Origin: Antedon mediterranea
Taxonomy: Eukaryota; Animalia; Echinodermata
Assembly (NCBI RefSeq): GCF_964355755.1
Contig: NC_092677.1
Location: 1,510,101-1,574,100, forward strand
Length of the DNA: 64,000 nucleotides
Direction: 5' to 3'
A program made the position numbers and the translations under genes. A model generated the notes under the pieces. That model worked only from the letters and a program-made list of their open reading frames with translations. It was not told the DNA's origin and did not search any database. Shown here in pieces: positions 26,848 to 64,000 of this stretch (positions within the stretch are counted from its first letter, which is position 1; every line of letters begins with the position of its first letter).

Positions 26848-27654
26848 TTTAGTCGCGTGGAAGCGACTCTATAGTTCACTAAGTCGGTCGGTCGGTCTGT
26901 CTGTCTGTCTGTCTGTCTGTCGGTCTGTCTGTCGGTCTGTCTGTCTGTCTGTCGGTCCGGTATCACTATGCGTTTTGTCGCTTTATGACCTTATCTTGAT
27001 ATCAGTTTAATCTAGCTAAGTCAATTTTTTACAGAATATTCCTTATGGCCAGGAATCGATGTGGTTATGTTTTCACGGTGCGCAATAAAAAATTACGCGG
27101 TCTACGCACGATTTAACGAAATCACGTTTGTAATCATATCTTAACAACCATGAATCACAATTAAATAAAATTTGGTACTCATAAATTTCAGGGCATAAAT
27201 CATCATATGGCAATACAATTACGTGCGTAGCGCATGTAACGCATGCGTACGCGCGCTTAAAATTTTCAAAATTTATTTTCGATGAAATAAGAGTACGTTT
27301 CAGGCAATTTTAAGCGTTTACAAAATTGCCATGAGTGCGCAGATTTTTGCGCGCGCAGTGCGCGTTAAATGTTATTGCGCACACTTTTTGCCCGATTTCT
27401 GTTTTCTTGACTTAATTTTCAACTCGAAATTACGTTATACGAGCACGTCAAATGTGACAGGCTACGCACGTGTAAATTAAAAAAATATAAATGTTTTTAA
27501 ACATTTCAACATTTTTAAACATGTTCAGTAATTTCGGTCAGTATAGTTCACTATGTCGGTCGGTCCGTCTGTCTGTCTGTCTGTTAGTCTGTTTGTCTGT
27601 CGGTCCGGTATCACTATGCATTGTAGCACGCGACTTAATGGCTGTTGGCCTTGT
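26848..27654 (+). mobile_element. Helentron-associated (DINE-1/HINE-like) non-autonomous element
   Basis: Subterminal inverted repeats agtcgcgtg...cacgcgact, (GTCY)n-like microsatellite and a short 3' hairpin ggctgttggcc. Inserted in a T-run with no TSD (empty paralog site about 5575). Confidence 0.75.
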
Positions 27655-31193: not shown

Positions 31194-34100
31194 ATGTCGA
31201 TATGTGAGTGTGCACTAATTTTCCTGATTTTCCAAAGCGACTGTAAGTAGAAACTTAATTGTCATGGATGTATAGGGTCCTACTATTATTTCAACATAGA
31301 CTATAAGACTAGACTGGCTATGGACGGTGACGGCGTAACCAATTTTTATTGTATTGTTTGTATTAATTGATTTGTTTCATTAAATACATTGCCACTCATT
31401 CATTTTTGTGTATTTAGTTATAAATGGTCAAAATCCTGTTGTCAGTGTACAAGATACCACTGTTAAATTAGGTGAAGATGCTATTATCTCCTGTAGTTAC
31501 ACACTCAGTGGTACTAGTACTATACAGGCTGTTCAATGGTTCAATAGTAATTCAGATGGAGATGAGTTAGACATCCTTGTTAATACTGCAGATACAAATC
31601 CAAATGGTAGATATGCAGCTGATACCTCACAACCTGGAGTTACTACTCTTACCATTGCAAACACAGTGTTGTCTGATGATGGATACTATCTATGTAGAAT
31701 TGTTGATTCATCTCTTATCCCTGGTAATCAACATGGAAATCTTACTGTTCAGTGTAAGTATTAAAATGTGTCTCAATAACTATATTTTAAATATACTTTA
31801 AATAATGCTGTATAACACTACTACTAACACTAACAAGATAAGTATCTACTATATATTTTGAAAGAAAGACCATTTATTACAGATCTAGAAAACCCTGTTT
31901 TGGAATCCAACACATTATCTGTCATGATAAATGGCACCGCAACATTCACGTGTACTAAACTTATCGGCAAACCAACACCAATTACTGTCAGATGGACAAA
32001 AGAGAATGTTCCACTTGATGGTTCTGATGCAGACAAATATTCATATTCTGATGCAACATTAAATATTAATAAAGTTGATGAAATGGATGAAGGAAGTTAT
32101 CGTTGTGTAGCAGAGAATGCTGCTTACAGTGGAGATGAAGGAAAAGAAAGTAATCCTCTCAAACTTTCAGTGGGTTGTAAGTAAAATTTATTTATGTAGC
32201 TTTAACATGGATATATTATTATTATTCTGATACAGAAAAATATCCATCTTCTGATGCAACATTAATTATTAATAAAGTGAATGAAATGGATGAAGGGAGT
32301 TACCAGTGTGTAGCAGAGAATGCTGCTTATAGTGGAGATGAAGGAAAACGTACTAGTAATCCTCTCACTATCAGTTGGTTGGTTGCAATAACGTTTTTAT
32401 AACTAACGATACAATAATATCATATTTTATTGAGAGCATAGGTATATTTTATTGAACCAAACAGTCTATCATAATTAGACGGAATATTCCAACAATTATG
32501 TATTACTAGATGGTACGCTCGCTTCGCTCGCGTACCATCTAGGTCGTGCCCACAGATGGTTCTCGAATACATAATAATTTCAGCGTTAAAAAACTGGCGA
32601 TTTCAAATGTACGTAGGCTACCGCAGGACAATAATACATGTCGTTTACAGGAACGAATAAATAGACACTGTGATTTATGTACTCAACTAAAATTAGCACC
32701 CTGGGAATTACTTCCGAAAGAGAAACTTGTCACAAAATAAGACCAATTGTTTAAGTAAAATTTAAACAAACTTAAAGATGTATTGTCCCTTTGACTAATT
32801 CCAAAAAAATAAAAAATAATAGATTTCGAAAAAAGGTGGGTCATTTTGAAGTATCATAATAATTATTAACTATCACCAAAAATTTTTCGAAAAAAAAAAA
32901 ATTTAACTGAAATACAGACGGTTTTTTGTTTAAAAAATTACTTTGACTTCCAGTCAAAGTTTTCAATCAAAACATATCCCATAATGAAACGCGCCTGTTT
33001 GGCTACTCTGTATGCATAATCATAAAACTTCCTCATGATCTGTGTGAAAATACCTTCTTAACCGTGACAAGTTGTAAACAATCCTAATTTAGCATATGCA
33101 TAATGCGTACTCATGGTTTGAAATCTTTGTTTACTTTCGCTCATGACGATTTTCCAGATGAAATGTAATCAAACTAATTTACCTGTTAATTACGTAAACT
33201 TGTTGTTTTTGGCTCAAATTTTCGACTTAAAGTGAATAACTTTAATATTAATTTGATATGGCCACTTTAAATTTAGAATATTTTGACCTTCATTTTTTTG
33301 TGTTTCAAGGGACAATACATCTTTAATTTGTGTTTTGTATGTAACATTAGGGTTGAGGGATGGGGAAGAGGATGGGTGCAAAGAGGAACAATGTTAAAAT
33401 ATATTCTTTATCCATTTAGTAACGAAATATTAATTGCTTTCATGTTTTACAAATAATATACCACTAAACACAGTAAAACATTGCGATGTAATACTTTGTT
33501 GAAACTATCACCGTCCTAGTCGATTGAAATAGTACAGCACATGTAACGATACATCACTACGACGTGTATATGTTTATAATATAATGTAAAACAATTTGTG
33601 AAAACCACCTCTATTCGGGGAAAATCATAAATTCGATTTAATCGTCAATAAATATTAAATTATCTAACTCAACTTAATTAGTAGGCCTAATGGTTTTCAA
33701 TTGTTTCTTGAGCCAATTCATACTTAAGTTGGTTCCTACCCTACCCACCAAAGTTGTTCTGCGTTTAGGGCATGTGATGTACCGTAGGCCTATTCTTAGT
33801 ACAGGCTATATGTGACATTTATCCTATGTAACCTTGAAAAAATTCTAATAAAAGGTCTTTTGGTATTTTCTTGTAGCTTTAGGTGTGAATAAATACCAAA
33901 ACATTTTTGCAGCGTTCTAGTTGCTGCTCCTGGGTTTAAAAAGACAAATGTGGTGTCTACATCTATGGTTTAGTGGTCTCTACTGGTTTTACAACGCTAC
34001 TCATGCCAGTGAGGGAAAGGTGATGATGTGGGTGGTTTAACTGCAATAATAAAGATTTGTACATAATATACGGCGAGTGAAAACGCTAGCCCATTATCCG

Positions 34101-37100
34101 TTTAAAAAAAAATTATATCCAACATCTGCAGCACAGATTGAAAACAAAAATGGATCGAATTTCGAGTATACAGTACTGTACTTGCCTTTACGACGCCTGA
34201 GGGAATAGACACTTGTGAAACAGAGATTGGAATGTTCCATTCATCGCAAATCAATAATTTTTTAAAGAAAATCGGCCTGTCTTCAACATTATGATGCTGT
34301 ACTCTAGCTGTTCAACCAGTTTTCAGCTATCTATATATAAATTTACGTAAGGGCAAAATTCGATAAGTCTCGGTTAATTTATAGAATTTTTACTCGATGG
34401 TATATAAAGTTGGTTCATACTTTCGGTACTGATTTTAACCATCTGACATAACCCTGTTTACTAATTAAACTGAGTTAGGTAATTAGTTATTGACGAATAA
34501 AACGAATTTAGGTTCAACGATTTGCCCCAAATAGGGGTGTTTTCCGATCGTGGTATACACTGTCTAATGGATGTCCATCTTGAAAAATACCAGCCACAAA
34601 AATGCGAGGAGGCTTCGCATTTTCCTACCTCCTCCTACGATAATTGTTTTTAATAGCTGAAAACTGGTTGAACAGCTAGAGTACAGCATCATAATGTTGA
34701 AGAAAGGCCGATTTTCTTAAAAAAAATACTATTTTGATAGATTTAATATACGATTATACAAATGTATTGATTTGCGATGAATGGAACATCCCAGAGTTTG
34801 GTTTAACACAAGTAGGTAAATTTATGAGCCCTTGGTTTAACACATACGGTAGGTAAATATATGGGCCCTTTGAGAATAAACTTGCAATACTTTGACAATA
34901 CTGTAAATACTTATTAACTATTTTTGGTCGTCATTTGAATCGAACATTTCTTACTGTGAATGTTCATACTGTTAGATGTAATATAACAAGGCCAACAGCC
35001 ATTAAGTCGCGTGCTACAATGCATAGTGATACCGGACCGACAGACAGACCGACAGACCGACAGACAGACCGACCGACCGACATAGTGAACTATACTGACC
35101 GAAATTACTGAACATGTTTAAAAATGTTGAAATGTTTAAAAACATTAATTTTTTTTTAATTTACACGTGCGTAGCCTGTCACTTTCGACGTGCTCGTATA
35201 ACGTAATTTCGAGTTGAAAAGTAAGTCAAGAAAACAGAAATCGGGCAAAAAGTGTGCGCAATAACATTAACGCGCAGTGCGCGCGCAAAAATATGCGCAC
35301 TCATGGCAATTTTGTAAACGCTTAAAATTGCCTGAAATGTACTCTTATTTCATCGAAAATAAATTTTGAAAATGTTAAGCGCGCTTGCGCATGCGTTACA
35401 TGCGCTACGCACGTAATTGTATTGCCATATGATGATTTATGCCCTGAAATTTATGAGTACCAAATTTGATTTAATTGTGATTCATTGTTGTGAAGATATG
35501 ATTACAAACGTGATTTCGTTAAATCGTGCGTAGACCGCGTAATTTTTTATTGCGCACCGTGAAAACATAACCACATTGATTCCTGGCCATAAGGAATATA
35601 CTGTGAAAAATTGACCTAGCTAGATTAAACTGATATCAAGATAAGGTCAGAAAGCGATAAAACGCATAGTGATACCGGACCGACAGACAGACAGACAGAC
35701 AGACCGACAGACAGACCGACAGACAGACAGACAGACCGACCGACCGACATAGTGAACTATAGAGTCGCTTCCACGCGACTAAAAATATATACAAATAAAC
35801 TTTATTACTGAGATTGTGGTTAGGCTCTACTGATATATAAACACATTATTATATACAAATAAACTTTATACTGACCGTTCCTTCTCAACGTTTGTATTAA
35901 TTAATAATTACCAATAATATAAACGTCATAGTGGTGTATCATGACATGTACTTTGATATTTCAATCGATTATGACAGTGACAGTTTTAACAAAGTATTAA
36001 ATCGCAAATGTTTTACTTTATTTAGAGGTATATTATTTATAGGCCTATAAAACATATTTCGTTACTGAGTGGATAAAGAATATATTTAAAAATTGTTCCT
36101 CTTTGTACCTATCCGCTTTCCCATCCCTCAACCCTAATGTTACATACAAAACACAAATTGGGTTTCTTTAAATTAGTCCAAATAAAAAATTTGGACTCAT
36201 TTTGTGATAAGTTTCTCCTTCGGAAGTAATTCCCAGGGTGCTAATTTTAGTTGACTACATAAATCATCGTGTCTATTTATTCGTTTCTGTAAACGACAAT
36301 GTATTATAGTCCTGCGGTACGTACATTTGAAATCGCCAGTTTTGTTACGCTGAAATTACTGTGTATTCGAGAACCATCTGTGGGCACGACCTAGATGGTA
36401 CGCGAGCGAAGCGAGCGTACCATCTAGTTAAAAACAATTATCGTAGGAGGAGATAGGAAAATGCGAAGCCTCCTCGCATTTTTGTGGCGGGTATTTTTCA
36501 AGATGGACATCCATTAGACAGTGTATACCACGGTCGGAAAACACCCCTATTTGGGGGCAAATCGTTGAACCTAAATTCGTTTTAATCGTCAATAACTAAT
36601 TATCTAACTTAATTTAATTAGTAAACAGGGTTACATCAGGTGGTTAAAATCAGTACCGAAAGTACGAACCAACTTTATATACCATCGAGTAAAAATTCTA
36701 GAAGTAAGGCGCGAATTACCGAATTTTGCCCTTACGTAAATTTATATATAGATGCGGTAATGGACATAAAGCACAACTACACAGTTTAATTATAAAAGGC
36801 CTTTTTATAATATAGAACAAGACAATATATAAAACCAATAGATGCACTGACTATGTTTAAATAACATAATCATAAGTACTTTCTATTTCTTTAGCATTGA
36901 AAACACCTTCTTCTACATCCAGTAGGTCAACTACACGTACGTTTTGTTTGTTTGCATTGCACTAATTGTTTCCTATTTTTAGGTCATATAAGTTTGCGAA
37001 TAAAAAATATGACTATTGTATATTTGTTATGTCACAATCACATGGTAACTCTGATCCTCTTGATTTGTAAATCGTTCGTAAACAGAAGTTCCAAATAGTA

Positions 37101-37633: not shown

Positions 37634-38707
37634 TATACATGTTTAAAATAAAAATAAAATAAATATATTATTATTATTATTAATGGAATATCATTGGTTT
37701 GAAACTACAATCACGAACATCTTATTGATTTTGTTATAGAAATAAAGAGAAATCATAACCTGTAGAAAGTGTTTTCTTTCTCTTGATTTAACTCTTTAAC
37801 GCGTACCGTACAAATTTAATAAAAAGGAAATTTGAATGCTGCAATTTGTATCATCAATAACTAAACAAAATATACACAAGTACTTATAGTGTCTTATATT
37901 GTCTTTACCAATGGTATGCATAGGCCTATAACAACATTTGATGTAAAGATAAAAACCATAGGCATACTTGAAAAATTTAAAAACAACGATACATTTATTA
38001 AAATGTTAATTTCTTTTTTTCTTTTGTTTTTTAAAATTAAAACTTGCTTGTATTAGACCAACTTTGATTGGTTACTTAGAAATGTTTGAATGCATTAGTA
38101 ATTTGACATATAATGACTATACCAGCATAAGAAGGAAAATAAACTAGACTATCAATGATTTTAACACCAACACACGTGTAATTGCATTATTGTTATATAT
38201 CGTTCTTTAATTTAATTCGCCTCGAGACGTGCTTTGGTTGCTTACTGCCATATTTTTTCAAAGAGTTGAGTTATGATCAAATTGATCTCGAAACGGACAA
38301 ATTAAATTCTAGGGATAAATTGGATGGGGGTATAAAGTTGGGTGCGATTGAGGTCCACTTCTGTATTAAGGAAGACATTTTAAAAATACAACAGTTTGAG
38401 TTTGCACTGTCTGAACGCACTGTATAAATAAGGCCTAGCATCAAGTGTTTAATTAATGGTTACTAATTAAAAAGATTAATTTGATCATCTTGATTTGGAC
38501 GGAAGTACATTACACTATAATTATGAAGGAAGTAAACACAATATATCACAAGCCTAACAAAAGCAGTCTACACTAAAAAAAATAACAGGAACAATCAATA
38601 TTTAAAAGTATACAATACAGTAGAGTGTGGTAGAGTGCGAGGCAATCAAACAGTTATCTGCACATCGAAGCGGGGTTTAAATATTTCAATCATTTTACAG
38701 ATTTGTA

Positions 38708-41700
38708 ATGGAGGAGAAATGTAAAGGTGCGATAGTTCTTCTGATTGTTCAACTTTGTGGTTGTAAGTATGAATATTGAAAATACCTGCAATGATGAATG
38801 ATGTAACCAATCCTAGATAAAAATGTATATTTTTGTAATCATGTTTGAATCGAAGTTGTTGCATTTAAAATGTAGCCTGGCAATTTCGGTTTTTTATTTG
38901 TTTTATAAATGCTTTTAAGTTTGCAATCTTTTTCGTTCATAATTATTTTTTAATAATCAACGTGAACAAATACTAGTTTGGATACAACTAGATTATTTAA
39001 ACACATTTGTTTTTATTTTCTTATTTGTTAAAGTTACAAATGGTCAAACTGAGCCTGTAGTCAATGTGCAAAATGCTACTGTTAAATTAGGTGAAGATTC
39101 TGTTATCACATGTGAATACACACTCATTGATTCAAGAACACTTCAGGCTGCTCAATGGTACAATAGCACATCAACAGGAGATAGGTTAAACCTTCTTGTT
39201 AATAGTGCTGAAACGAATCCAAATGGTAGATATGCAGTTGATACCACACAAACTGGTGTAGCCACTTTCACCATTGCAAACACAGTGCTGTCTGATGAGG
39301 GATATTATCTATGTAGAATTATTGATTCACCTGCTATTGAAACTGGTGAAGATTATGGAAAACTGACTGTTCAATGTTAGTACGAATTGTTATATCATTT
39401 AACAAGACCTATTCACAATTTAAAATAATCTTAATTATTATAATATTTACTTTAAGGTTTTAGGTTAGTCCAAAAAGCTTTGCAATATACCTTATCGTTT
39501 ATTTATTTATAGAACTTGTTTTGTATCTCCATTGAGATCCAGCCGGTGATACCCATTTTTTAGTAGTTTGCCTTTTGATTTATGTTTAAATTTAATATTT
39601 TCACATACCTGTTAATGTTCGCCAGTGGCTAACGAATAATAATCAATCAATTTAAATAGTATGCATAAGCAAGAAAATAAATAGATTTGAAAAAAGGCTA
39701 ACCAGTGAAGAGAGAAATTACTATTCTTTCCTGGGCTTTCAAACAAAAGCATTAATTAGGCTAATCAAAGAGAAGTTATCCCTATTGAGGGTACATTGTT
39801 TTCAATTAATATACTGATTGTTGATCAGGTTTCATAAAACCAAACACTTTTCATACAAAATGGAAGACCATTAAAAGTACAGTACCGTACAATAAGAAGA
39901 TAAAACAAGGTCCTGTATGATAAAAGTAACCTTTTTTGTTCTTTTGCCTTTACAGATCTTGAAAACCCAGTTCTGATTCCAACAGGATTGTCCGTTAACA
40001 CAACTGAAACTGTGACATTTACGTGCTCTGATCTTATTGGTATACTGACACCGATTACCATCACATGGATCAAAGATGACGTCATACTTGATTTGTCTGA
40101 TACACAAAAGTATCCAACTTCTGATGCAACATTAACGATTAATGACGTTGATGAAACAGATGAGGGAGTTTATCGCTGTAGAGCAGAGAATGCTGCTTAC
40201 AGTGGAACAGATGGAAAACTTAGTAATACTGCCAGACTGTCAATAGGTTGGTGGGAATACATTTGTTATAACTTGTTGATACAAATAAAATCGTATTTTA
40301 TTGGGATCATTCATAGTATACAGTAGGTATTTTTTTGTAGGACCAAAGAGCAGGTCATAATTATGAATGGAATATTCAAGTTCAATGTTATGTGGTAATG
40401 ACAATACACAACGAAAACTGAATGTTTTTAGTTAACTTTAATTATAACAAGGCCATAAATACATATCTGCAGTCGCGTGCTCAAATTTGAATTAGTGTTT
40501 GCCAACATTTAATGTTTACTGACCAACTGACCGACATAGTGAGCTATAGAAGAGTCGCATTGCACGCGACTAAAAAGCGTTTTTATAATATGAACGTTTG
40601 ACGTGTTTTACTAATATTGCTTGTTTCTCTATTCTTTTAGCATCAACGACAACTTCTTTTATATCCGGTAAGTCAACTACACGTAGGTTCTCTATGCTTG
40701 CATTGTATTTATTGTAAATTTCCGGATTTGTGCATTTTCGTTAAGCATATAAATGATATAAATGGGAGGGAATATCCCCCGCCTCACCACCATGATCTGT
40801 ATCACGCATTAAAAGGGACAATAATAATAAAATAATGACCTTTGTATATTTTTGTCAACACTACGTTATTGTAAACATGTTTATTGTTTTGTTTATTGGT
40901 ATATATATAAGTTGTTACAAAGATTCTAACTGGGTAATTACAATTACATTAAAATGCATATCCTTGGTGATGAATGAATTGAAGTTTGACCGAATTATTT
41001 CCATGCAAAAGACATATTCTAAGTGCAATTTCGGTGGTTTATGCTTTGTTTGATTATTATTGCCTAATTATTTTTATAATCTAAATAAACGTGAACATAT
41101 AATAATTTAATGGATAAAACATGACTAGCTGCTGGAGGGAATGAGCTCGTCAGACAGACCGGGACCACAGCATAGACAAGAAAGAAAGGAACAACTGGCT
41201 CCAGTTGGGAGAGGCCTTTGCCCAGCAGTACGACGATATGTGCTGAGGAAAGAAAGAAATATTAGCTGTACCATTCAGTTGGATGATGGGGTTTTGCTTA
41301 ATATTGTTAGTTTTATTTGTTTTTATTTTCTTTCAGCTACAAACGGTCAAACCTCTCCAGTAGTCAATATACAAGATGCTACTCTTAAATTAGGTGAGGA
41401 TGCTGTTATTAACTGTGATTACACACTCAGTGATACAAGAACTCTACAGGCTGCCCAATGGTATACTAGCACATCAACAGGAGATCAGTTAAACCCTATT
41501 GTTGATAGTGCTGGAACAAATCCAAATGGTAGATATACAGTTGATACCTCACAAACTGGTGTAGCTACTCTCACCATTGTAAACACAGTGTTGTCTGATG
41601 ATGGATACTATCTATGTAGAATTATTGATTCACCTGCTGCTGAAACTGGTGAAGATTATGGAAAAGTTACTGTTCAATGTAAGTATCGAAAATTGATAAG

Positions 41701-44195
41701 AAATATGAGAAAAACAAAATCCCATGCAAGATCATTAATTTATTTTGCCTTTACAAACTAGTTCTGAATTAAATAGAATTCTCTGTTAGTACAACAAAAA
41801 CGGAAACTTAGTAATACATCCACACTGTCGGTAGCTTGGTTGGAATAAACTGTTTATGCAATAATATCATTATTTATAGTTTATCCTGTAATGGAAATAA
41901 AGCACAGGTACACAGTGAAAACTGGAAATTTCAGTTTCAGGTATACTTATAATAATGAATGTTTTATTATCATTGCAATTGTTTATTTTCTATTTCTGTA
42001 GCATTATCGACAACTCCTTCTATATCCAGTAAGTCAACAACATGTAGGTTTTATTTGCTATTTGCATTTTTATTTACGGGTTTATGTTTTTTATGTCCGG
42101 GTTTTTGCATTTGTGTTAACCATATAAAGGATAGAAATGGGAAGGGATATCATCTGCCCCATCCCCATGATCTGTATCACGCCTTAAAAGGGACAATAAT
42201 GATGACCTTTGTATATTTTTGTCAACACTACGTTATTGTAAACATGTTTATTGTTTTGTTTATTGTTATACATATATAAATTGTACAAAGATTCTAACTG
42301 GGTAATTACAATTACATCAAAATGCATATCCTTGGTTATGAATGAATTGAAGTTTGACCGAATTGTTTCCATGCAAAAGACATATTCTAAGTGCAATTTC
42401 GGTGGTTTATGCTTTGTTTGATTATTATTGCCTAATTATTTTTATAATCTAAATAAACGTGAACATATAATAATTTAATGGATAAAACATGACTAGCAGC
42501 TGGAGGGAATGAGCTCGTCAGACAGACCGGGACCACAGCATAGACAAGAAAGAAAGGAACAACTGGCACCAGTTGGGAGAGGCCTTTGCCCAGCAGTACG
42601 ACGATATGTGCTGAGGAAAGAAAGAAATATTAGCTGGACCATTCAGTTGGATGATGGGGTTTTGCTTAATATTGTTAGTTTTATTTGTTTTTATTTTCTT
42701 TTAGTTACACACGGTCAAACCTCTCCAGTAGTCAATATACAAGATGCTACTCTTAAATTAGGTGAGGATGCTGTTATTAACTGTGATTACACACTCAGTG
42801 ATACAAGAACTCTACAGGCTGCTCAATGGTACAATAGCACATCAACAGGAGATGAGTTAAACCAACTTGTTAATAGTGCTGGCACAAATCCAAATGGTAG
42901 ATATACAGTTTATACCACACAAACTGGTGTGGTTACTCTCACCATTGTAAACACAGTGTTAGAAGATGATGGATACTATCTATGTAGAATTATTGATTCA
43001 CCTGCTGCTGAAACTGGTGAAGATTATGGAAAAGTTACTGTTCAACGTAAGTATCGAAAATTGATAAGAAGTATGAGAAAAATAAAATCCCATGCAAGAT
43101 CATTAATTTATTTTGCCTTTACAAACTAGTTCTGAATCAAATAGAATTCTCTGTTAGAACAACAACAACAAAAACGGAAACTTAGTAATACGTCCATACT
43201 GTCGGTGGTAGGTTGGTTGGAATAAACTATTTATGCAATAATATCATTGTTTATAGTGTATCTTGTAATGGAAATAAAGCACAGGTACACAGTGAAAACT
43301 GGAGGTTTCAGTTTTAGTTATAACAGGTATATTTATAATAATGAATGTTTTATATCATTGCAATTGTGTTTTTTCTATTTCTGTAGCATTAACGACAACT
43401 TCTTCTATATCCAGTAAGTCAACAACATGTAGGTTTTGTTTTTTATTTACGTAAATTTCAGGGTTTTTTTTCATTTGTGTTAAGCATAAGGATAGAAATG
43501 GGAGGGGATATCCCAAGCCCCATGATCTGTATCAGGCCTTAAAAGGGACAATAATGATGACCTTTGTTTATTTTTGTCAACAGTGCATTATTGTAAACAT
43601 GTTTAAAACACATGGTAACACTAATCCTTCTGTATTTTTCAGTTTTAAATACAGAAGTTCCAAAGAGTGAGAGCGTATGCAATTCAACACGTCTTGTTGT
43701 TGGAATGACGTTTGTTGGTGTGCTCATTGGATTCATTATCTGTTTGATTGTGGGTTTTATTATCAGCAATATAAGGAAGTCAAAGTCAAAGGTGAAGTAT
43801 AATTTAGAAAGTTGACCCAACAGCAAGAGTATAGGAATAAAATGACCAAATGAAATACCGCCTACTTTTGGTAATGGAAACGTATTTTAACATTTAATAT
43901 GATGTTTTATTTTAAAGGCACCTACATCGAAAAACGCCAACCAATCAGGGGTAAGGATGCTATACTTTAATTATTCACTTTATTCATCATCATCATCATT
44001 ATTATTTTTACTATTGTCACCAATATATTATCAATAAAGGTTTACACTCTTTTCATTCTTCTTTTTTCATGCAATAAACTCTATATTATTTTTGTACAGG
44101 CGTATATGACTTATACTGGGGAGACAGATAGCCACGCATATCAAGATTTACAGAAGAAAGACGATAATCAAGCTGTATATGTAAATGTTGAATAA
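38708..44195 (+). CDS. Ig-superfamily receptor unit 9: fused multi-V gene (leader-V-I-stalk-V-stalk-V-stalk-TM-cyt)
   Basis: Exons 38708-38762 (MEEKCKGAIVLLIVQLCG), 39034-39375 (V, class B), 39956-40246 (I-set), 40641-40667, 41337-41678 (V), 42002-42028, 42705-43046 (V), 43387-43413, 43643-43791 (TM), 43918-43949 (32 nt), 44100-44195 (tail). There is only one leader and one TM exon in the interval. Confidence 0.65.
40446..40574 (-). mobile_element. Short HINE/DINE-1-like element
   Basis: Same sub-TIR pair (agtcgcgtg / cacgcgact) and ggccttgtt end as 26848-27654, but internally much shorter. Confidence 0.6.
40750..43490 (+). repeat. Direct tandem duplication, period 1368 bp (V exon + deleted I-set remnant + stalk)
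   Basis: ORFs 41141 and 42509 are near-identical and offset by 1368 bp. Each copy carries a short RTE-like LINE 3' end (LGEAFAQQ-encoding, about 41125-41258 and 42493-42626). Confidence 0.85.
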
Positions 44196-45481: not shown

Positions 45482-48197
45482 ATGATCGGTTGCTTGCTGC
45501 CATTCTTTCTTTCACAATTTAGTAAGTATACTGAACCATCATATTATATTCACTAGCAGGCCTACATACTATTGAAAACAGTAGGTGCAGAATCAATTAA
45601 ATGTAAGGAGAATGGGACTACTCGTGTGAAATGTGCGGGGTACGATTGAGAGTAGGATTTATTTAAATCTTTGTAAGTTTCTCTTATCGAGTATGTTTGT
45701 TAATTATTACATAATTGCACTTAAGCCTCAGCGTACAAAATCAAAACTATCTCAAAAGTTACTTCTGACATAAGATTGAGATATTTAATGCACGAATCAC
45801 TTATAGCCAGCTATTCCATTTTGGTATTTTCTGAACAGTGACATAAACGTTTTAAAAAAATTACTTTCTTCAGTATATCCCTAATATCTATCTATACAAA
45901 AAAATTAGTACTTTCAGATACAATTGCAGAAACACCAGTGACAGTGGATACTGCAACAGCCAATGAGTTTAACAATGTAACAATGATGTGCACTCCATCA
46001 TTTCTGCAAGGAGATTCATTGGTTCAACTAATTTGGACAAAAGCTGATGAGAATGGTAATCAAGTAGGAACTGCTCTTGTCACTTCTACAGGACTAGCAA
46101 CCAATGGTCGGTTCATTTTATCCAATAATAATCTTATAATAACTGATGTTGAAAGAGGTGATGCAGACAACTATCGTTGTGCTATTAGCACCAGTTTAGG
46201 AAATCCTGGTGAAGACTTTGCAGAACTCACAGTCAATTGTGAGTAACATTTTGATGAATTTTCAAAATTTGCATTTATTTTTTCTTACAGTTAGTGGAGC
46301 ACTGTGGTGTGTAAAAAGTACTAGGAAGGTAAATCAGACTCGTTTTTGCGGGAGAAGTGGCGTACCCCCTACAAACATACACACTTAGTGGAGTCTGGCC
46401 CAAACGCTAAAAAATGGAGATGGGCACCACGGCCGTTAGCATTAGCTTTGGTTTCGACTTTATTTTTACCTTTTTTACCCTTTCTTACAGTAATACAGTA
46501 AATCTTTTAATAATAATGTTTCTGCACATGTAAATTGCCTGAGTTTTAGCAGAAACATTTTTTCAAACATTTTGAAATTTGCATTGTTGATATTGAAAAT
46601 AAGATAAAAAAATAACAATAATAAAATAATTAAAAACAAGATGTTTTCTGCAAAAAATAAATGATTATCTAATATTTTATGAAAATAGTTACTGAACATG
46701 TAAGGTAATTGCATTTCATAATTAGATATACTTTAACATTGTTAAATATAAATTTTCCATACATAGATCTTGACAAACCAGCTGTAAGTCCAACAAAGTT
46801 GTCTGTCAATATAGATGAAACTGTGCCATTTACATGTTCTCCACTCAATGGTTTGCCAACACCAATTACAATCAGATGGATCAAAGATGGCGAAGAATGT
46901 ATTGTGTCCGATACAGACAAGTATCCAACTTCCGATGCAACATTAAGTATTACTAATGTAAATGATACAGATGCTGGGGATTATTGGTGTGTAGTAGAGA
47001 ATGCTGCTTACAGAAGAAGGAAAACGTAGTGAGCCTGCCACACTCATAGTGGGTTGTAAGTACAAATTAATAATATTTGATTATTTCTACTATATTATAA
47101 AATATTAAAAATCATGTATTTAGTTTACTAAAATAATTATTATTTGTTTTTTTATTATGATGCAGACGTTTTATAATATGAACGCATGCTAAATTTTGAT
47201 AATAATTCTTTTTTTTTTATTTTTTAGCATTGACGACTACTTCTATATCCAGTAAGTCCACTATAAGTACGTTGCATTGTATTATTGTAAATTTTCGGGT
47301 TTGAACGAAATAAAAGTGGAAAAAACCCACAAAAGAAAAAAAAAATCCGTGCTTCGTTCCGAATTAGACAAGCATGAAAATGTTTGTTTTGCTGCGAAAC
47401 GATGCCAAAGGTTTCTTGATTTTGTTTTCTTAAAACCAATCATGTGGCATGAGTACCGAACAGCGACAATTAGTCAAAGAGGACACCAGGTCAGTTGCGA
47501 GAAGCCAAACAAAGAAAATATATACATATGGGTTCCCTGGATCTGTGTCTGCGCTCTGCATGTATCACTAATACACTTTATTATATTTTCATACAATTAT
47601 AAAAACACTGATACAGTACTCTAATAATTGTTTTAAGTACAGAAGTTCCAAAGAGCGTGTGTAATTCAACTGGTCTTGTTGTTGGAATGACGTTTGTTGG
47701 TGTGCTCATTGGATTGGATTCTTATGGGTTTTATTATCATCAGAAAAATAAGGAAGTCACATGCACAGGTAAAGTATAATTCAGAAAGTAGAACCAAAAG
47801 CAAAAGTGTATACTTAAAATGACCAAAGGTTTAATGAAATACCGCACACTTAAGTAATGAAAAATATTTTAACATTAAATATGATATTTTATTTTAAAGG
47901 TACCGACATCGAAAAACACCAACCAATCAGGGGTAAGGATGTTACTTCAACTTTAATTATTCAATTTCACTCGTCGTCGTCGTCACTATTGTCACCAATA
48001 TATCAATAAAGTTTACACGATTTTTATTCTTCTTTTTGCATGCACTAAACTTTTGTAATTTTTTTAGCAGCAAGGGTATATGACTTATGTTGGGGAGACA
48101 GATAAAGAAACAAAGCATACATACCAAGATTTACAGAAGAAAGACGGTAATCAAGCTGTATATGTAAATGTTAAAGCCAAAAAAGACAAAAAAATAA
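45482..48197 (+). pseudogene. Ig-receptor unit 10 (V class A), pseudogene or truncated secreted form
   Basis: Candidate leader 45482-45521 (MIGCLLPFFLSQF) and an intact V at 45918-46238. The I-set exon from 46767 has a 5-nt deletion giving a stop at 47029. The TM exon is frameshifted. The tail exon starts at 48068. Confidence 0.7.
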
Positions 48198-52085: not shown

Positions 52086-55000
52086 ATGAAGAATATGAAT
52101 AGTCTTATTAAATTGTTGCTTGTTTTTATGTTTCCATCTAGTAAGTATTAAAGTGTTCACTCACTCATCTGTTATTTGTTGCCGCTACACCTCACGACTA
52201 TAATTATCTTATCCTGATTGTGTTTGTTCAGCCTATAGGCCTATTCTATTTCAGTTGATTGGAATTAAAAATGTCAAAGCGGGGATGAATTATTATTGAA
52301 CATTCTATATAGTTTATTTATTTATTTCAACTATATTTTATGGTTGTCCATCCAGTCGAGGTTCATTAGGGACTCTCAGAATAACATGTATTTTTGGTCT
52401 GTACTGCAAGTGACTCCCTGACTTTTTTCTAGATGTTTTAATGCAAGTAGTAACTGTTACACCAGCTGTTGTCAAAGAAAGCGAAACAGCTACGATAGAA
52501 TGCAGCTACACAAATCCACCCCCAGCCCTGAACTTAATCAGTTGGTACCGTAGCGACGAACAAGGCAACCAAGAAGGAAATCCACTTGCTATTACTGATA
52601 CTACTCCATCACCAAATAGCCGTTATTCTCTAATAAGTGGTACAAATAGAGGTGATCTTAGGATTTCAGATGTTGTCAAGGCTGATGCAGGGAACTATGA
52701 GTGTAATGTGGTGTTTGCTGGCGGTATTATTATGAACAAGGTTACCAATCTTACCGTTCAATGTATGTATTAAAATTGAATGACATATACGAGATATATA
52801 CAGTCTACATTGTGCCTAGGTTACCTAGACAAACCGAGAGGCCTTTCCAACTCTGTGAGTTGCACCCTCATGTAGATGACCTCACCCATACATCTGTTAG
52901 TGCTTCAGACGATCTGTCCACTGAATTAATCCTTAAGTTATAAATAATAATTAAGAGGAATGTTTATTAATTAATTTAATATTAAAATTACAGACTGCAT
53001 TTTAAGGCATATAGTATTTGCTGTTTGTATGCGAGAACAGTGTTGATTGAGGTAGACACTTAACCTCCCCCAACATACACCCCTCCCCCTCACCTTTGTT
53101 AGGAAATGTTAGTTTGCAGATTTGTAATTATTTTCAAATTAGTGTCTGCATTCAATTTTTACAAATCAGAATGAGCACTAAACCCTAAAACACACAAAGG
53201 AATTTGAGTAAATTTGGAGAATATCTCCTATAAATTAATTAAGTGTGTCAGATGTCTTGGAGACAATTACTGACGGGAGGTGAAGGGCGCCCCCCGTGGA
53301 TTTGAGATGTTGTGTGCGGATGAGGAGAACGCACGAGAGGAGAGATGAACACGACGAAGAGAGTTGGATGGACATTTCCGAGTAATGATGTTTATATTAC
53401 TTGTTAGTTAATAATTTGATGTTTAAGAGGTATAATACGACGTTGGAAATAGAATTCGAGTGTGAAGATGTTTACTGTAGTTTGAACTTACATGGATTGT
53501 AAAGGATTTCATAGATTTAGAGTAGATTACTATACGAAAAGTTTGTTAATTTGTATTCAATGTTATCAACGGATCAAGATTGTTGAAGCTTGCCATGGTT
53601 GAAGTGTTACTGATATTGGAATTGTTTTAGTTCAAGACAAAGAATTGTTGATACTGTTTTGTACTACTTATTAAACTGTTGCAAAATTTTATACTTAATC
53701 GTATTCACTTTATTTGGATTCTTTACGATCTGAGGGGCTATACTTATTGATAACTCCCACACCCCCACATTACGAGAAATGGCGACGAGGATGGGATGTA
53801 GCAGTTTGTAAGTACTGTACAATTACCATAATTGTAAACTTCTAGCATAGGCCTAGATCCCGATTACGATTATTGACATTTCCGAAAGTAAACTAGGAAG
53901 CGGTTTAGCGATTCATTTATAAAGGAAGGATTTTACGACGTGGCGTACGTGTGATATAAACGGATTGTTGTGTTTACCGTTGCAGTGTTTTTGTTTAATG
54001 ACAGTTCGGCGATTGTGAAGTGCGCCACCTAGTTATGATTGAACTATAGTATTAATTCTAATTTGGAATAAGAGATCGAGTTACGTGTGGATATACTTTT
54101 GTGCAGATATTTTGATTGTGAAGGACGCCACCTATCAAGATTTGGACTAGTAATACTGTATTGTTGAAGCTAGAACTATTTTGACTTTTAAGCACTATAT
54201 TTATGAAACATTTTTATTTGTTGATTGATTGGAATTATTTTGATTGATTGATGGTATAAGTGTAATATTTATGGTAGAATAAGGGTAAAAACAAAAATTA
54301 TATACATTACCCAATAGATGTTTTTTAAGATTTTGGTGCATTAGTACATGTTAGAGATAAGCTCAGTAGTATATAAATTGTGTAATAAGAATTTATTTGT
54401 ACTGTAAGAGCTCAGTCTGAAATTATGGCAGAAGAACCAGCTGAAGATCAAGCGTCCATGCAGGGGATGATGCAGGCTTTGACTGATGTCCTACAAGGGT
54501 TAAGAGTTCAGCAAGCTCCACCTCCGGTGAAAATAGCCAAGTATAGAGGGTCTACAAAAGCAGATGGAGATTTGTCACTAAAAGAATGGTTAGATGACTT
54601 TCAGAGTTATGCCAACCACTATAACCTGACAGGAAAAGCAAAAGCGCAGTCATTATTGGATCATCTAGCAGGTTCAGCGAAAGAAGAGATTCTTTGCAGA
54701 GAAGGAAACGTGAGAGAAGACTATGACCAAGTAGTGACAGTGTTAAAGTCTTTGTTCGGACCAATAGAAACAGTACCTTCTCTAACTCGAGAATTCCACA
54801 ACCGGAACCAAAAAGATGTTGAGTCGCTAGCAGATTTTAGCCGTGTTCTAATGAGATTATATACAAAGATGGTAAAGGCAGCTGCAGTAGAAGAAGATAA
54901 GGATGCTTTGAAGAGGCTGAGGGATTATACATTGAAGGAAAGATTTGTTCATGGTGCCAAAGAAGGTTGGGTTAGGAGAGAACTAAGGAGAATAGAAATG

Positions 55001-58000
55001 CAGTGTAAAGATAAGACATTTTTGGAAATGCGGGAGGAAGTGTTAGAATTTTTTAAGGATGAAGAGCCAAGGCATCAGGCCAGAGTTTGTGAGGTGTCTA
55101 TGGAACATTCAGTAGAAGCAAGAAGGGTAGAAGAACCAGCACTAAAAGAAGAAATTGCTGCATTAAAAAATGACGTAGCGATGCTAACGAAGAGTGTACA
55201 GAGCTTGATAAATATTCAGAGTGCTGACATGGAACGAGCTAAAGAGTTAAAGTGTTACAATTGTGGCAAAAAGGGACATGCAAAGACAGACTGTACAGAG
55301 GAGACATTGTGTTTTAATTGTAAAGGAAGAGGGCATTACAGTAGAAACTGTCCGGAGAAACCTAAAGAGAAGGAAGCTAAAGGACCGGGGACAAAGCGGA
55401 TGTCAACCACACCAATGGAAAATACAGAGTTGGTAGATCGACTGGTCGCAAAAAGTCCTTGTGGTGATGTGGAAATCGGAGGCATCATGCTGGGTTGCAT
55501 TTTCGACACGGGTGCAGAAGCATCGATTATACCATCGTCACTGTATCACGATAAACTAAAAAAGAATCTTGGTGAATTACAGCCCGCATCTGGAATATTC
55601 CTAAATGTTATTGGAGTAGGCGGGATTGAAATCCCAATTAAAGGCTACATTGAGGTACCGATTGAAGTGAATGGTCAGAACTTGATGGGAAGTTTTCTAG
55701 TAGTATCAGATCAGTCTTGTACACAGAAGGACACCAAGTATCCTCTTGTAATCGGCTGCAATATTCTTAGACATTTAGTGAATTCGCCAATACAGAGCAG
55801 TAAGGATGTGGTACCAGCTATTCGGAAATACAAAATCATACTTGCGTCAGAGGAGGATAAAATGTTATTAGCGTCGAGCAAAGTGATGAATGATGGTGAT
55901 GTTCATAACAAATGTGCAGATGCACTGAGTCGTTGTCCAAGTAATACCTGTGTTAATTCCTCGGAGTTAAAAAGTGACCTGAACGTGATCGCATCCTGTT
56001 TGATGACAAAAGTTGAAGGTGGTTCCATAGAAGTAAATTCTGTTGTACCAACAGTGTTGCCGTCATTTTCACATGAAGAATTGTCAGATATGCAAAAGAA
56101 TGAAGACGTTTTCTCTAAGGGAATCATAGACGTTGGTAGATGTGCTGTGATTTCTCACCAAATCAAAGTTACAGAAGGACCACTAATTAGATTTCCATAT
56201 AGAAGGATTAATCCATCGTTGATTCCAAGAATCGCGGTACCTTTACACGCGGTAACTACAGGGATGACCAACAAACAAACAGGGAAGGCAGCTGTTTTTA
56301 AGACGGAAGATGAACAAAAAGAGGCAGCAAACCGAGAAGCCGCACGACATGATGGTCGCACTACAGACTTTAAATTGGAGGTTGGGAATAGAGTGTTGTT
56401 GAAACGAAATGCGTTTACTGGACGTCATAAGTTATCAGATAAATTTCAAGAAGTAACTCATGTGATTATAGACATGAATGAAGAACAGGATATTTATGAA
56501 GTTAGACCAGCAATGGGTGGAATTTCCAAATGGGTAAATCGACGTCAATTGCACCTTGATCCACGTGGCCAGGAATCAGATGTCTTGGAAGATCATCTTC
56601 CTATATTTGTATCAGATGAGAATAGTGAGGGTAGTGAAGAAGAAGATGACGAGGGTGATGCTTTGTTACAATTAGTGTTTACTCCTTCTGTAGAAAACAA
56701 AGAGATAGACAATATGATTGTTTCTGTAGAAAACAAAGAGATAGACAATATGATTACTTCTGTAGAGAACAAGGAGATAGAAAATCAAGTTAAGAATATT
56801 GAAGATAGGGATAAAGGGTTGAGACGATCAAGTAGATTGAATAAAGGGAAACATGGAAATCCATGTCATTTGCCGACATCGGCAGTAGGGGTTCATGATT
56901 AAAATTGTATGCTACTCTGTTAATAGAAGATCACTTGAGTATTAGGGATTAGCTTGAATTATCTTTAATAGTTGTTATGTTGATATTGCAGATAATTTAT
57001 GAAGTTTACGTTACATAGATGATAAGTAATTTGAAATTTTTTTAAATTTGTTTTTTTGTTAAGTTTTCAGAGAAATATTTTTTTTATTTGTATTGTACAT
57101 TCGGGGACGAATGTTTTTCAAACAGGGAAATTGACGGGAGGTGAAGGGCGCCCCCCGTGGATTTGAGATGTTGTGTGCGGATGAGGAGAACGCACGAGAG
57201 GAGAGATGAACACGACGAAGAGAGTTGGATGGACATTTCCGAGTAATGATGTTTATATTACTTGTTAGTTAATAATTTGATGTTTAAGAGGTATAATACG
57301 ACGTTGGAAATAGAATTCGAGTGTGAAGATGTTTACTGTAGTTTGAACTTACATGGATTGTAAAGGATTTCATAGATTTAGAGTAGATTACTATACGAAA
57401 AGTTTGTTAATTTGTATTCAATGTTATCAACGGATCAAGATTGTTGAAGCTTGCCATGGTTGAAGTGTTACTGATATTGGAATTGTTTTAGTTCAAGACA
57501 AAGAATTGTTGATACTGTTTTGTACTACTTATTAAACTGTTGCAAAATTTTATACTTAATCGTATTCACTTTATTTGGATTCTTTACGATCTGAGGGGCT
57601 ATACTTATTGATAACTCCCACACCCCCACATTACGAGATTACTACGTACTTACTAGATGCAAACATCTGACCAATTAACAATTAATATGATATATATTTG
57701 TTCTTCATCAGATCTTGATCCTCCATCAGTGAGAGAGTCCTCTATGTCCGTACTAAGTGACAGTACAGCTACGCTTGAATGTACCTTGCCAGATGGAGTA
57801 CCAACTGAAATAAGTTTTTCCTGGTTTATATTCGATGAATTAATTAATATTGATAACAGTGAAAGATTTAGTGGTTCTTTATACAACCAGAACTTGACCA
57901 TTAGTAATGTCATGTCCACTGATGAAGGATCTTATCGTTGTCGAGCCGAGAATTCTGCATATTCTGGTAGTGAAGGAAGATACAGCAGTCGCTTTCTAGA

Positions 58001-61000
58001 TTTAACAGTAAATTGTAAGAAATTTCTTTCATTTTTTTAGATTAAATCTGAAAAGAATAAAAAATGTGTGCTGTACATGATTATATTTTGCTTGAAGTTG
58101 CTTTGTGGTATAAATTTGATTTTTGCCAAATTTGTTATATTCTATTACAGATGTAGCATTAACAACTATGGAATGGATTGGAGGTAAAGTAACATGTAAG
58201 GCAGAGGGGAATCCAACGCCAAGAGTCACCGTTCAACTCGATCAATCTGATCTTGAATCCGGTACTGGTTCGGTGTCTGCTGACATTTCATGCGATACAA
58301 CATCAGTCATAACATGTGTTATTGACAATAACGTCAATCCATCTGTTACAGAAACTTTTAATTCTTGTGATGGTAAGTTGACCTCTACGTTAATCTAATC
58401 ATGTCATATTGTGAAGACAAAATAATATATTTTTATTTAGTTATTATTATTATTATTGTACCTATACATTTCAAAAATTAGAATTTGTCATTGTTCCCAA
58501 AGGTCGTAAATGCTTGTTTGCTATTTTGTTGCCACAGTATACAATAATAATTTTAATTAAAAATCTCTGGATACATTTAATATTGTCAAAATTCAACAAA
58601 GTTTCTGTCCTTAATTCAATATCAGTCTTTTCTTTAAACTTACTTGTTCAACTGGACTGTTTACTATAAATATTTTTCACTCCTGATACAGTATGCCTGT
58701 TCCAATATAGTAACTTCCCGTTGTTACCCAGGCTTTGCATGTTATGTGTTAATATGGACCTATACATTAGGTCTATGGTGTTAATACTCACTTTTAAGCT
58801 CTTAATAACCTTGCAATGTTATGACTTAATGTTAATATTGCTATGCATGTTTGCTTTTATTTCAAGATGCATGTTCTTCAAGTCCTTGTGATAATCAAGG
58901 GACTTGTGAGATTAATGATAATGGTTTTAGTTGTCAATGTACCTCAGGCTTTGAAGGTGTTACATGTAAACAAGGTATGTAGACTAGATGCATTGACACT
59001 CATAATCAAAGGGTTACATGTAAACAAGGTATGTGAACTAGATGCATTGACACTCATAATCAAAGGGTTACATGTAAACAAGGTATGTGAACTAGATGCA
59101 TTGACACTCATAATCAAAGGGTTACATGTAAACAAGGTATGTGAACTAGATGCATTGACACTCATAATCAAAGGGTTACATGTAAACAAGGTATGTGAAC
59201 TAGATGCATTGACACTCATAATCAAAGGGTTACATGTAAACAAGGTATGTAGACTAGATGCATTGACACTCATAATCAAAGGGTTACATGTAAACAAGGT
59301 ATGTAGACTAGATGCATTGACACTCATAATCAAAGGGTTACATGTAAACAAGGTATGTAGACTAGATGCATTGACACTCATAATCAAAGGGTTACATGTA
59401 AACAAGGTATGTAGACTAGATGCATTGACACTCATAATAAAAGGGTTACATGTAAACAAGGTATGTAGACTAGATGCATTGACACTCATAATCAAAGGGT
59501 TACATGTAAACAAGGTATGTAGACTAGATGCATTGACACTCATAATAAAAGGGTTACATGTAAACAAGGTATGTAGACTAGATGCATTGACACTCATAAT
59601 CAAAGGGTTACATGTAAACAAGGTATGTAGACTAGATGCATTGACACTCATAATCAAAGGGTTACATGTAAACAAGGTATGTAGACTAGATGCATTGACA
59701 CCCATAATCAAAGGGTTACATGTAAACAAGGTATGTAGACTAGATACATTGACACTCATAATCAAAGGGTTACATGTAAACAAGGTATGTAGACTAGATG
59801 TATTGACACTCATAATCAAAGGGTTACATGTAAACAAGGTATGTAGACTAGATGCATTGACACTCATAATCAAAGGGTTACATGTAAACAAGGTATGTAG
59901 ACTAGATGCATTGACACTCATAATCAAAGGGTTACATGTAAACAAGGTATGTAGACTAGATGCATTGACACTCATAATCAAAGGGTTACATGTAAACAAG
60001 GTATGTAGACTAGATGTATTGACACTCATAATCAAAGGGTTACATGTAAACAAGGTATGTGAACTAGATGCATTGACACTCATAATCAAAGGGTTACATG
60101 TAAACAAGGTATGTAAACTAAATGCCTTGACACCCATAATCAAAGGGTTACATGTAAACAAGGTATGTAAACTAAATGTATTGACACCCATAATCAAAGG
60201 GTTACATGTAAACAAGGTATGTAGACTAGATGCATTGACACTCATAATCAAAGGGTTACATGTAAACAAGGTATGTAGACTAGATGCATTGACACTCATA
60301 ATCAAAGGGTTACATGTAAACAAGGTATGTAGACTAGATGCATTGACACTCATAATCAAAGGGTTACATGTAAACAAGGTATGTAGACTAGATGCATTGA
60401 CACTCATAATCAAAGGGTTACATGTAAACAAGGTATGTAGACTAGATGTATTGACACTCATAATCAAAGGGTTACATGTAAACAAGGTATGTGAACTAGA
60501 TGCATTGACACTCATAATCAAAGGGTTACATGTAAACAAGGTATGTAAACTAAATGCCTTGACACCCATAATCAAAGGGTTACATGTAAACAAGGTATGT
60601 AGACTAGATGCATTGACACTCATAATCAAAGGGTTACATGTAAACAAGGTATGTAGACTAGATGCATTGACACTCATAATCAAAGGGTTACATGTAAACA
60701 AGGTATGTGAACTAGATGCATTGACACTCATAATCAAAGGGTTACATGTAAACAAGGTATGTGAACTAGATGCATTGACACTCATAATCAAAGGGTTACA
60801 TGTAAACAAGGTATGTGAACTAGATGCATTGACACTCATAATCAAAGGGTTACATGTAAACAAGGTATGTGAACTAGATGCATTGACACTCATAATCAAA
60901 GGGTTACATGTAAACAAGGTATGTAGACTAGATGCATTGACACTCATAATCAAAGGGTTACATGTAAACAAGGTATGTAGACTAGATGCATTGACACTCA

Positions 61001-63119: not shown

Positions 63120-64000
63120 AAGTTACAGGTGAAGTATGATTTAGACAGCAAGAGTATAGGAATAAAATGACCAAATGAAATACCGCATACTTTTGGTAAT
63201 GGAAAAGTATATTAATATTTAATATGATGTTTTATTTTAAAGGCACCGACATCGAAAATCAGGGTAAGGATGCTATACATTAATTATTCACTCTACTCAT
63301 CAACATCATCATCATTATTATTTTTACTATTGTCACCAATATCGCCAATAAACGTTTACACTATTTTCATTCTTCATTATCCATGCAATAAACTTCTGTA
63401 TTGTTTTTAGTTGCAAGAGTATATGACTTATACTGGAGAGACAGATAACGAAACAAACCACACATACCAAGATTTACAGAAGAAAGACGATAATTAAGCT
63501 GTATATGTAAATGTTTAAGCAAAGAAGGACAACAAATAATATACATGTTTAAAATAAAATAAGTATATTATTATAATCAATAGAATGATTGCAATGGTTT
63601 GAAACTACAATCACATACCTCTTGTTGATTGTTTTTATAGAAATAGAAGAAGTGTTTTCTTTCATTTTCTATAATAAAAATGAAATGTAAATGCTGCAAT
63701 GTATCATCATTATCAACAACACAACCTATAATAGTGAAATAATCTACCAACGGTATAACGCAACAGTAAAGATCAAATTCGTAATGTAATGTAAAAATTA
63801 AAACCATATATATACTTGCAAAATATAAAAATAAGATTAATATAATTGTATTTCTTGCTTTGATTTTTTGGAAATAAAACGTACTTGGTTGTAGACCGAC
63901 TTTAATTTCTTTCATTTGAATTAAATGTATTAATGCATATATATATATATACGGACTATACCAGCATAAGAAGAAAAATACTACAAAAAAACTATACACA

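Follow-up and report, generated by a model that had tools for sequence, protein, structure and literature searches.

How does a clustered cell-surface receptor gene come to encode additional binding domains? The question is raised by a locus of Antedon mediterranea (Echinodermata), a member of the crinoids, the earliest-branching living echinoderm class. The DNA analysed, here called the window, is a stretch of 64,000 nt (NCBI RefSeq assembly GCF_964355755.1, contig NC_092677.1, positions 1,510,101 to 1,574,100, forward strand) that holds a head-to-tail array of immunoglobulin (Ig) receptor genes. One of these, the focal gene, would encode three V-set domains, and a sequence-only reading had proposed that it is a newly assembled triple-V receptor. 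Here we report a follow-up of that proposal. We consider it reasonably probable, from the sequence evidence set out below, that the focal gene is a fusion of two members of a crinoid gene cluster, with a doubled V-stalk module in one open frame, and that splicing of its exons would yield a single-pass receptor in which three V domains are present.

The focal gene consists of 11 exons, all with AG/GT ends, and their joined open reading frame (ORF) of 1731 nt encodes 576 aa followed by a stop (Table 1). The encoded order is signal peptide (SP)-V1-I-stalk-V2-stalk-V3-stalk-transmembrane segment (TM)-tail. The 5' part is assigned to a gene A and the V2 and V3 exons to a gene B. The starts of V2 and V3 lie 1368 bp apart, in agreement with the two 1368-bp repeats, each with an intact V and stalk, that the sequence-only reading had described; the stalk spacings are 1361 and 1385 bp. 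Its statement that all junctions are of phase 1 and allow one ORF holds from SP up to the TM entry and for the open frame of 576 aa, but the junctions thereafter are of phase 0.

Table 1. Features of the focal gene in window coordinates, with the evidence for each; P0001 is a RefSeq protein model of A. mediterranea, P0004 a distant paralog and X5 a possible RNA run.
Feature	Positions	Strand	Evidence
Signal-peptide exon, gene A	38708..38762	+	ORF joining; N-terminus and SP-V join the same in P0001
V1 exon (V-set)	39034..39375	+	Pfam; V of P0001 95% identical
I1 exon (I-set type Ig)	39956..40246	+	P0001 93% identical over 85 aa
Stalk exon S1, 27 nt, Ser/Thr-rich	40641..40667	+	RNA-type contig of a paralog runs from I end through 27 letters to TM start
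Fusion breakpoint J	40872..40883	.	Stalk-TM intron homology stops, on a perfect 12-bp palindrome
Short insertion, 6-bp direct repeat at ends	41126..41268	.	In both repeat units; not in V1 intron
V2 exon, gene-B type	41337..41678	+	Pfam V-set; V-type fold model
I-exon remnant 1	41745..41840	+	Acceptor deleted, donor GT changed
Stalk exon S2	42002..42028	+	ORF joining
Inferred unequal-crossover interval	42202..42212	.	S2 intron S3-like before, S1-like after
V3 exon, gene-B type	42705..43046	+	Pfam V-set
C-C' tract of V3, common to distant P0004-type paralog	42823..42867	+	45/45 nt with X5 contig; 15/15 aa
I-exon remnant 2	43113..43217	+	Acceptor deleted
Stalk exon S3	43387..43413	+	ORF joining
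Transmembrane exon	43643..43791	+	ORF joining; family comparison
Cytoplasmic exon 1	43918..43950	+	ORF joining; paralog joints in X5
Cytoplasmic exon 2, carries YMTY and YQDL-x9-YVNV	44100..44195	+	ORF joining; family comparison

V1, V2 and V3 score 38.5, 38.3 and 39.1 bits with the Pfam V-set profile (PF07686), above its curated cut-off of 26 bits, and the B- and F-strand cysteines C26 and C93 and the C-strand tryptophan W41 are invariant in all eight V domains of the window. A fold model of V2 (mean predicted local distance difference test, pLDDT, 91.6) has the V-type strand pattern; its best structural matches, with TM-scores of ~0.7-0.8, include domains of CRIg, T-cell receptor V-alpha, PD-1 and Dpr/DIP. 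V2 and V3 are 94.2% identical in nucleotides and 91% identical as protein domains (ten residue changes), and both share 86-87% of nucleotides with V1 at a silent divergence (dS) of ~0.23-0.25. In the tree they form a pair (support 99/98) within a clade of V1, P0001-P0004, P0006, P0007 and P0013 (100/100), P numbers denoting retrieved proteins. Since V2 and V3 are closer to each other than to V1 and pair on their own, their source is a second paralog, B; an origin as copies of V1 was ruled out at 86-87% nucleotide identity.

The flanking DNA preserves traces of how the parts came together. At the breakpoint J the TM and tail of gene A and the 5' end of gene B are missing, and a V-type intron continues beyond 40883. 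The homology break at 40883 lies ~37 nt short of the point at which a TM exon would be expected to start, which bears out the claim that the TM exon is gone after the first stalk and that a V intron takes over at about 40880. The I exons of both repeats are cut to ~75 nt, and a 10-nt deletion takes out the original acceptor AG. The sequence-only reading had called these exons deleted and without acceptors; the remnants and the lost AG agree with this, but a cryptic TAG stands a few bases downstream. Its use was considered and rejected, as all 12 GT donors examined with it give a stop or a frameshift. The I deletion with acceptor loss, the insertion and J are the same in both units, so each event occurred once, before the doubling; the insertion, present in both units and not in the V1 intron, likewise predates the duplication. 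The insertion may be LINE-like (long interspersed element), and sequence resembling it occurs elsewhere as loose ends in sequencing-run contigs. The intron after S2 is a mosaic: up to 42201, 25 of 33 informative sites are S3-like, and in 42202-42250 four of four are S1-like, as would be expected of an unequal crossover at 42202-42212. Between 42051 and 42165 its likeness to S3 is no more than 81%, and to S1 75%, which may reflect a third source or a patch prone to indels.

These traces suggest a history in three structural steps. Paralog B lost its I exon together with the acceptor, as the deletion common to both remnants shows. A single deletion at J (~40883) would then have placed the V-stalk-TM-tail part of B behind the SP-V1-I-stalk part of A, removing the TM and tail of A and the 5' end of B. 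An unequal crossover between homologous stalk introns (42202-42212) would finally have doubled the unit of J, V, remnant and stalk, 1.37 kb in length. The domain-number innovation proposed earlier is thus supported at the DNA level as fusion plus duplication, by J, the crossover mosaic and the contigs described next.

An assembly artefact had been named as an outcome that would refute the proposal. Four DNA-type sequencing runs (X1-X4) were compared with the window; they derive from one sample, which may be the source of the window, and 53-59% of sampled words were present in them. Contigs without differences cover 40660-40864 (X1-X4), 41339-41545 (X2-X4) and 43412-43565 (X2, X4), and over V3 42838-43114 (X2) and 42838-43000 (X4), X1 showing three differences there; the S1 intron, V2 and V3 each have specific, difference-free contigs among these runs. 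The contigs that cross J all start where S1 and S2 sequences merge (40835 = 42202), and the contig of S1 stops 30 letters beyond that point. Because contigs break at this S1/S2 merge point in four runs, two different sequences would lead into J. The J-crossing contigs among those listed carry unit-2 letters, and the predecessor on the S2 side is not among them. The junctions are thus backed by contigs of X1-X4 and an artefact is an unlikely source of the duplication, with no single contig spanning both units.

A particular form of artefact, in which the two units are alleles of two haplotypes set in tandem by the assembler, we hold to be very improbable. The 3-6% divergence between the units could be allelic in a heterozygous animal, the units are never found on one contig, and the depth of V2- and V3-specific contigs is close to that expected of a single copy, in keeping with either reading and no more than a hint, contig depth being a noisy measure of copy number. 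However, the S2 intron, which differs from the introns of S1 and of S3, runs on into J, a neighbourhood not expected of a simple pair of alleles; the break at the merge point in four runs implies two predecessors of J; and module variants beyond these two exist. Over 40600-43720 the runs X1-X4 contain extra V-end, I-remnant and stalk variants (e.g. at 41689, 41716, 41941 and 43132) found in neither unit, and also one copy of the V intron whose upstream sequence differs; the extra module variants point to more B-type copies, on the other haplotype or elsewhere. At position 39127 the DNA runs show a second letter, giving the residue of P0001, so a P0001-like allele of gene A would coexist with that of the window.

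The two V exons of the fusion gene have since diverged, and the comparison of exon and intron divergence suggested by the sequence-only reading could be made directly. Between V2 and V3, 20 of 342 exon positions differ (5.8%), against 13 of 447 (2.9%) in the upstream intron and 15 of 291 (5.2%), plus four indels, in the downstream intron. The exon does not differ from the downstream intron (Fisher p=0.73) or from both introns together (p=0.11), and differs from the upstream intron alone at p=0.03, uncorrected. The near identity noted for the upstream introns is therefore correct, whereas the downstream intron is as diverged as the exon. There are 12 replacement changes on 258.5 sites and six silent changes on 80.5 sites, a replacement-to-silent ratio (dN/dS) of 0.61 that does not indicate significant constraint (p=0.39). 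The residues quoted earlier for the two copies are correct; as to the description of the exons as differing mostly by amino-acid changes, 12 of 18 coding changes are replacements, a share below the 76% expected in the absence of selection (p=0.40). Compared with V1, V2 and V3 have dN/dS of ~0.47-0.49 (p ~0.03). The V2 and V3 exons contain no indel and no stop, against five indel events in 738 bases of flanking intron (weak, p ~0.10). With three outgroups, eight changes were placed on V2, 11 on V3 and one was unclear.

Half of the residue changes (5/10) lie in the C-C' strands and none in the B-C or F-G loops. Raw substitutions are clustered (17 in 150 bp, p=0.003), but not after adjacent changes are merged (p=0.34); for residue changes the values are p=0.08 and, merged, p=0.29, and the longest stretch of low divergence has p=0.05. 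Positive selection on V2 and V3 was accordingly rejected, and the fast V divergence suggested before is not supported, on the dN/dS of 0.61, the exon divergence close to that of the downstream intron and the merged clustering. A short conversion patch in C-C' of V3 is probably present. The V3 tract matches the distant P0004 in 15 of 15 residues, against 56 of 96 elsewhere (p=0.001, for a tract picked after the fact), and the sister V2 in only 11 of 15, and an X5 contig equals V3 over 45 of 45 nt and then reads, by hand translation, as P0004. The earlier suggestion of conversion gains from these matches and is tempered by the post hoc choice of the tract. Instead of conversion the tract may be a retained ancestral state; it is fairly conserved, with 13 of 15 residues shared with V1. 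Several changes private to V2 also fall within this tract, and these have no donor among the available sequences. The copies would thus have diverged by 3-6% through ordinary mutation under mild constraint, plus, probably, the short C-C' conversion.

Both internal V exons are predicted from their splice signals to be included by default, which is the simplest reading. The acceptors of V2 and V3 have 15 pyrimidines in 17 positions and their donors are GTAAGT, equal to or stronger than those of the eight other V exons examined (7-14/17). The phase-1 exons would hold the frame and give V-I-V-V-TM; any skipping is predicted to yield shorter in-frame forms, all 16 combinations staying in frame. Alternative or mutually exclusive use of V2 and V3 as cassettes, stalks included, in the manner of Dscam is improbable. 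They are equal-length tandem duplicates whose skipping keeps the frame, and tandem exon duplication often gives mutually exclusive exons, according to PMC6071210. The surrounding introns, however, are 323-676 nt long, the splice sites are strong rather than weak, a stalk exon lies between the Vs and the frame cannot enforce exclusion. None of 15 intron pairs had Watson-Crick complementarity above shuffles (lowest fraction 0.10; G-U pairs not scored), and the longest inverted intron matches are 12-15 nt (E >= 1.5). The mutually exclusive cassettes of the sequence-only reading are therefore disfavoured. The possible RNA run X5 has no depth over V1 and only paralog pieces on V2 and V3, and so gives no evidence on expression either way. 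Its contigs, one joining a paralog I end, 27 letters and the TM start and others joining TM and tail exons, back the exon plan of the family. A joint in X5 from 41632 (3' part of a V) to 43387 (stalk start), which may reflect V-to-stalk splicing of a paralog, was not counted, as the letters between are not known.

The cytoplasmic tail reads YMTY and then YQDL-x9-YVNV. A YxxL-spacer-YxN module is present in 15 of the 33 relatives retrieved, from Antedon and Anneissia, a set in which distant relatives are under-sampled; the tail motif of the focal gene is common to P0008, P0009 and P0012. YxN binds Grb2-type SH2 domains. The strict ITAM pattern (that of the immunoreceptor tyrosine-based activation motif), Yxx[I/L]-x(6-9)-Yxx[L/I] in PMC9546547, is missed by one residue; the last is V, so that the tail is ITAM-like only. 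The pattern of the inhibitory motif (ITIM), [I/L/V/S]xYxx[I/V/L], is likewise absent from the focal tail by one residue. As with other Ig receptors encoded in clusters, SH2 proteins would be recruited to the tail, and motif, clustering, pseudogenes and divergence together suggest that the role is most likely in immunity or self/non-self recognition.

Several observations weigh against a working three-V receptor. No transcript of the focal gene was seen, both strict tail patterns are missed, no contig joins the two units in DNA runs of what is possibly the window's own source, and constraint between V2 and V3 is not significant. The 3' untranslated region (UTR) homology stops at ~44215, ~20 nt past the stop, at a high-copy repeat. 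In the downstream paralog (45918-48175) neither the conserved 5' region nor a signal exon is present, and its I and TM exons are frameshifted; with many array members broken, intact-looking by-products are to be expected. More than one V domain, by the family's own V profile, was found in none of the 33 family proteins. It is accordingly conceivable, if rather unlikely, that fusion and duplication are real but a neutral by-product, the gene being silent or mostly skipping its extra Vs on the way to a pseudogene; the cut 3' UTR, the broken neighbour and the several frameshifted paralogs would then be of a piece with it. Against such decay stand 11 of 11 intact exons with strong sites, V exons without indels beside introns with five, an upstream region (38015-38733) homologous to the 5' regions of other array members, and a stop, a few codons earlier than in paralogs, that is overlapped by AATAAA.

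The array around the focal gene runs head to tail; its genes are built from SP, V, I, a 27-nt stalk, TM and two exons for the tail, and many are broken. Positions 1-63600 hold about a dozen genes and fragments whose TM and tail are near-identical and whose V exons fall into several subfamilies. Within the array, V and I exons are ~60-95% identical to the nearest RefSeq Antedon protein, while in an array-edge gene at 52.4-63.1 kb most exons match P0014 at 99-100% and one at 89%, so the version of the cluster present here differs from the annotated one. The focal gene belongs to a crinoid V-I-stalk-TM family (P0001, P0003, P0008, P0012), both by its place in a tandem array and by the homology of its exons for V, I, stalk, TM and tail. 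P0001 (XP_071958680, 234 aa) has the same SP-V1-I joins at 93-95% identity and ends inside the I domain, and P0012 (Anneissia japonica XP_033100826) shares the tail motif but does not have more than one V. Architecture varies within the family, with V-TM (P0013), three I-type domains (P0011) and V-I-Ig-EGF (P0014, P0032). The V2 search returned five of 306 candidates, all A. mediterranea proteins, a full-length member 15 of 1602, from A. mediterranea and A. japonica, and the V profile 16 of 7990 scored, 11 from Antedon and five unrelated long proteins; the V2-based searches covered proteins of 199-2000 aa, a range that a shorter V2/V3 product would fall below. A literature search, with most subscription papers and all supplements outside its scope, found no description of this crinoid Ig family.

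Other rearrangements were observed in the window. The V-I-Ig-EGF-like gene at 52433-63161 (P0014) ends in the TM exon of the focal family followed by a stop, whereas in P0032, a close paralog, TM and tail are of another kind; the P0014-type gene is another likely fusion. Within an intron of that gene, 58792-62800 holds ~70 copies of a 54-bp repeat at 95-98% identity. A duplicate of the I-exon 3' half (32196-32360) lies directly behind an intact I exon (31885-32172), and inverted repeats of ~700 bp (26887-27601 and 35035-35748, 95-96% complementary) are probably one mobile element present twice.

Comparable histories are known from other systems. In the primate leukocyte receptor complex, deletion and unequal crossing-over in an Ig cluster gave KIR fusion genes, in which parts for binding and for signalling are shuffled (PMC7516082). 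They resemble the focal gene in the head-to-tail Ig receptor cluster and in the fusion mechanism, as an analogy only, no homology being tested or implied; the focal fusion differs in adding V domains one behind another and in belonging to an echinoderm. In rodents, the pregnancy-specific glycoproteins (PSGs) of the CEA family have three to eight tandem IgV-like domains by recent exon duplication and shuffling (bioRxiv 10.1101/2023.02.21.529360), but are secreted with the order N(n)-A, whereas the focal gene has a TM and tyrosine tail, the order V-I-V-V and a stalk exon after each module. By analogy with these two systems, the proposed mechanism of fusion and crossover is already known. [quoted passage not shown] They differ in an Fn3-like extracellular spacer next to an I-set domain, and they act in allorecognition with allele-specific binding, a phenotype that the focal gene is not known to have; the focal V domains are canonical enough for Pfam. 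No Fn3 match was found in the five focal exons scanned, and the focal spacer exons have nine codons. Teleost NILT genes are tightly clustered and encode one or two V domains; a connecting peptide has its own exon, the Ig exons are of phase 1, those of the tail are of phase 0, and the C-C' loop varies (PMC3022915). The focal gene is like them in cluster plan, phases, C-C' variation and peptide or stalk exon; their two domains are anciently diverged (26-32%), unlike the recently doubled V2 and V3. By the tests run, the focal gene is a member of none of the four; it works like the KIR fusions and the PSG domain expansion, and its cluster shares a general plan with Alr and NILT.

The triple-V gene is likely a product of ordinary shuffling in a fast-evolving cluster. 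As a young and readable case, with its two breakpoints located, it shows a receptor acquiring binding domains through fusion and unequal crossover. The wider value, and the more interesting lead, is the cluster itself, which is apparently undescribed, fast-changing, strongly unlike the RefSeq set and equipped with conserved ITAM-like tails. Tentatively, and as a possibility well short of probable, it may be a haplotype-variable crinoid Ig receptor complex in which V-stalk modules are moved and multiplied, C-C' patches are converted and individuals express different multi-V receptors, a counterpart of KIR and the leukocyte receptor complex or of Alr. Provided that it is expressed in coelomocytes or epithelia, it would represent a candidate polymorphic immune or self-recognition receptor system in crinoids.

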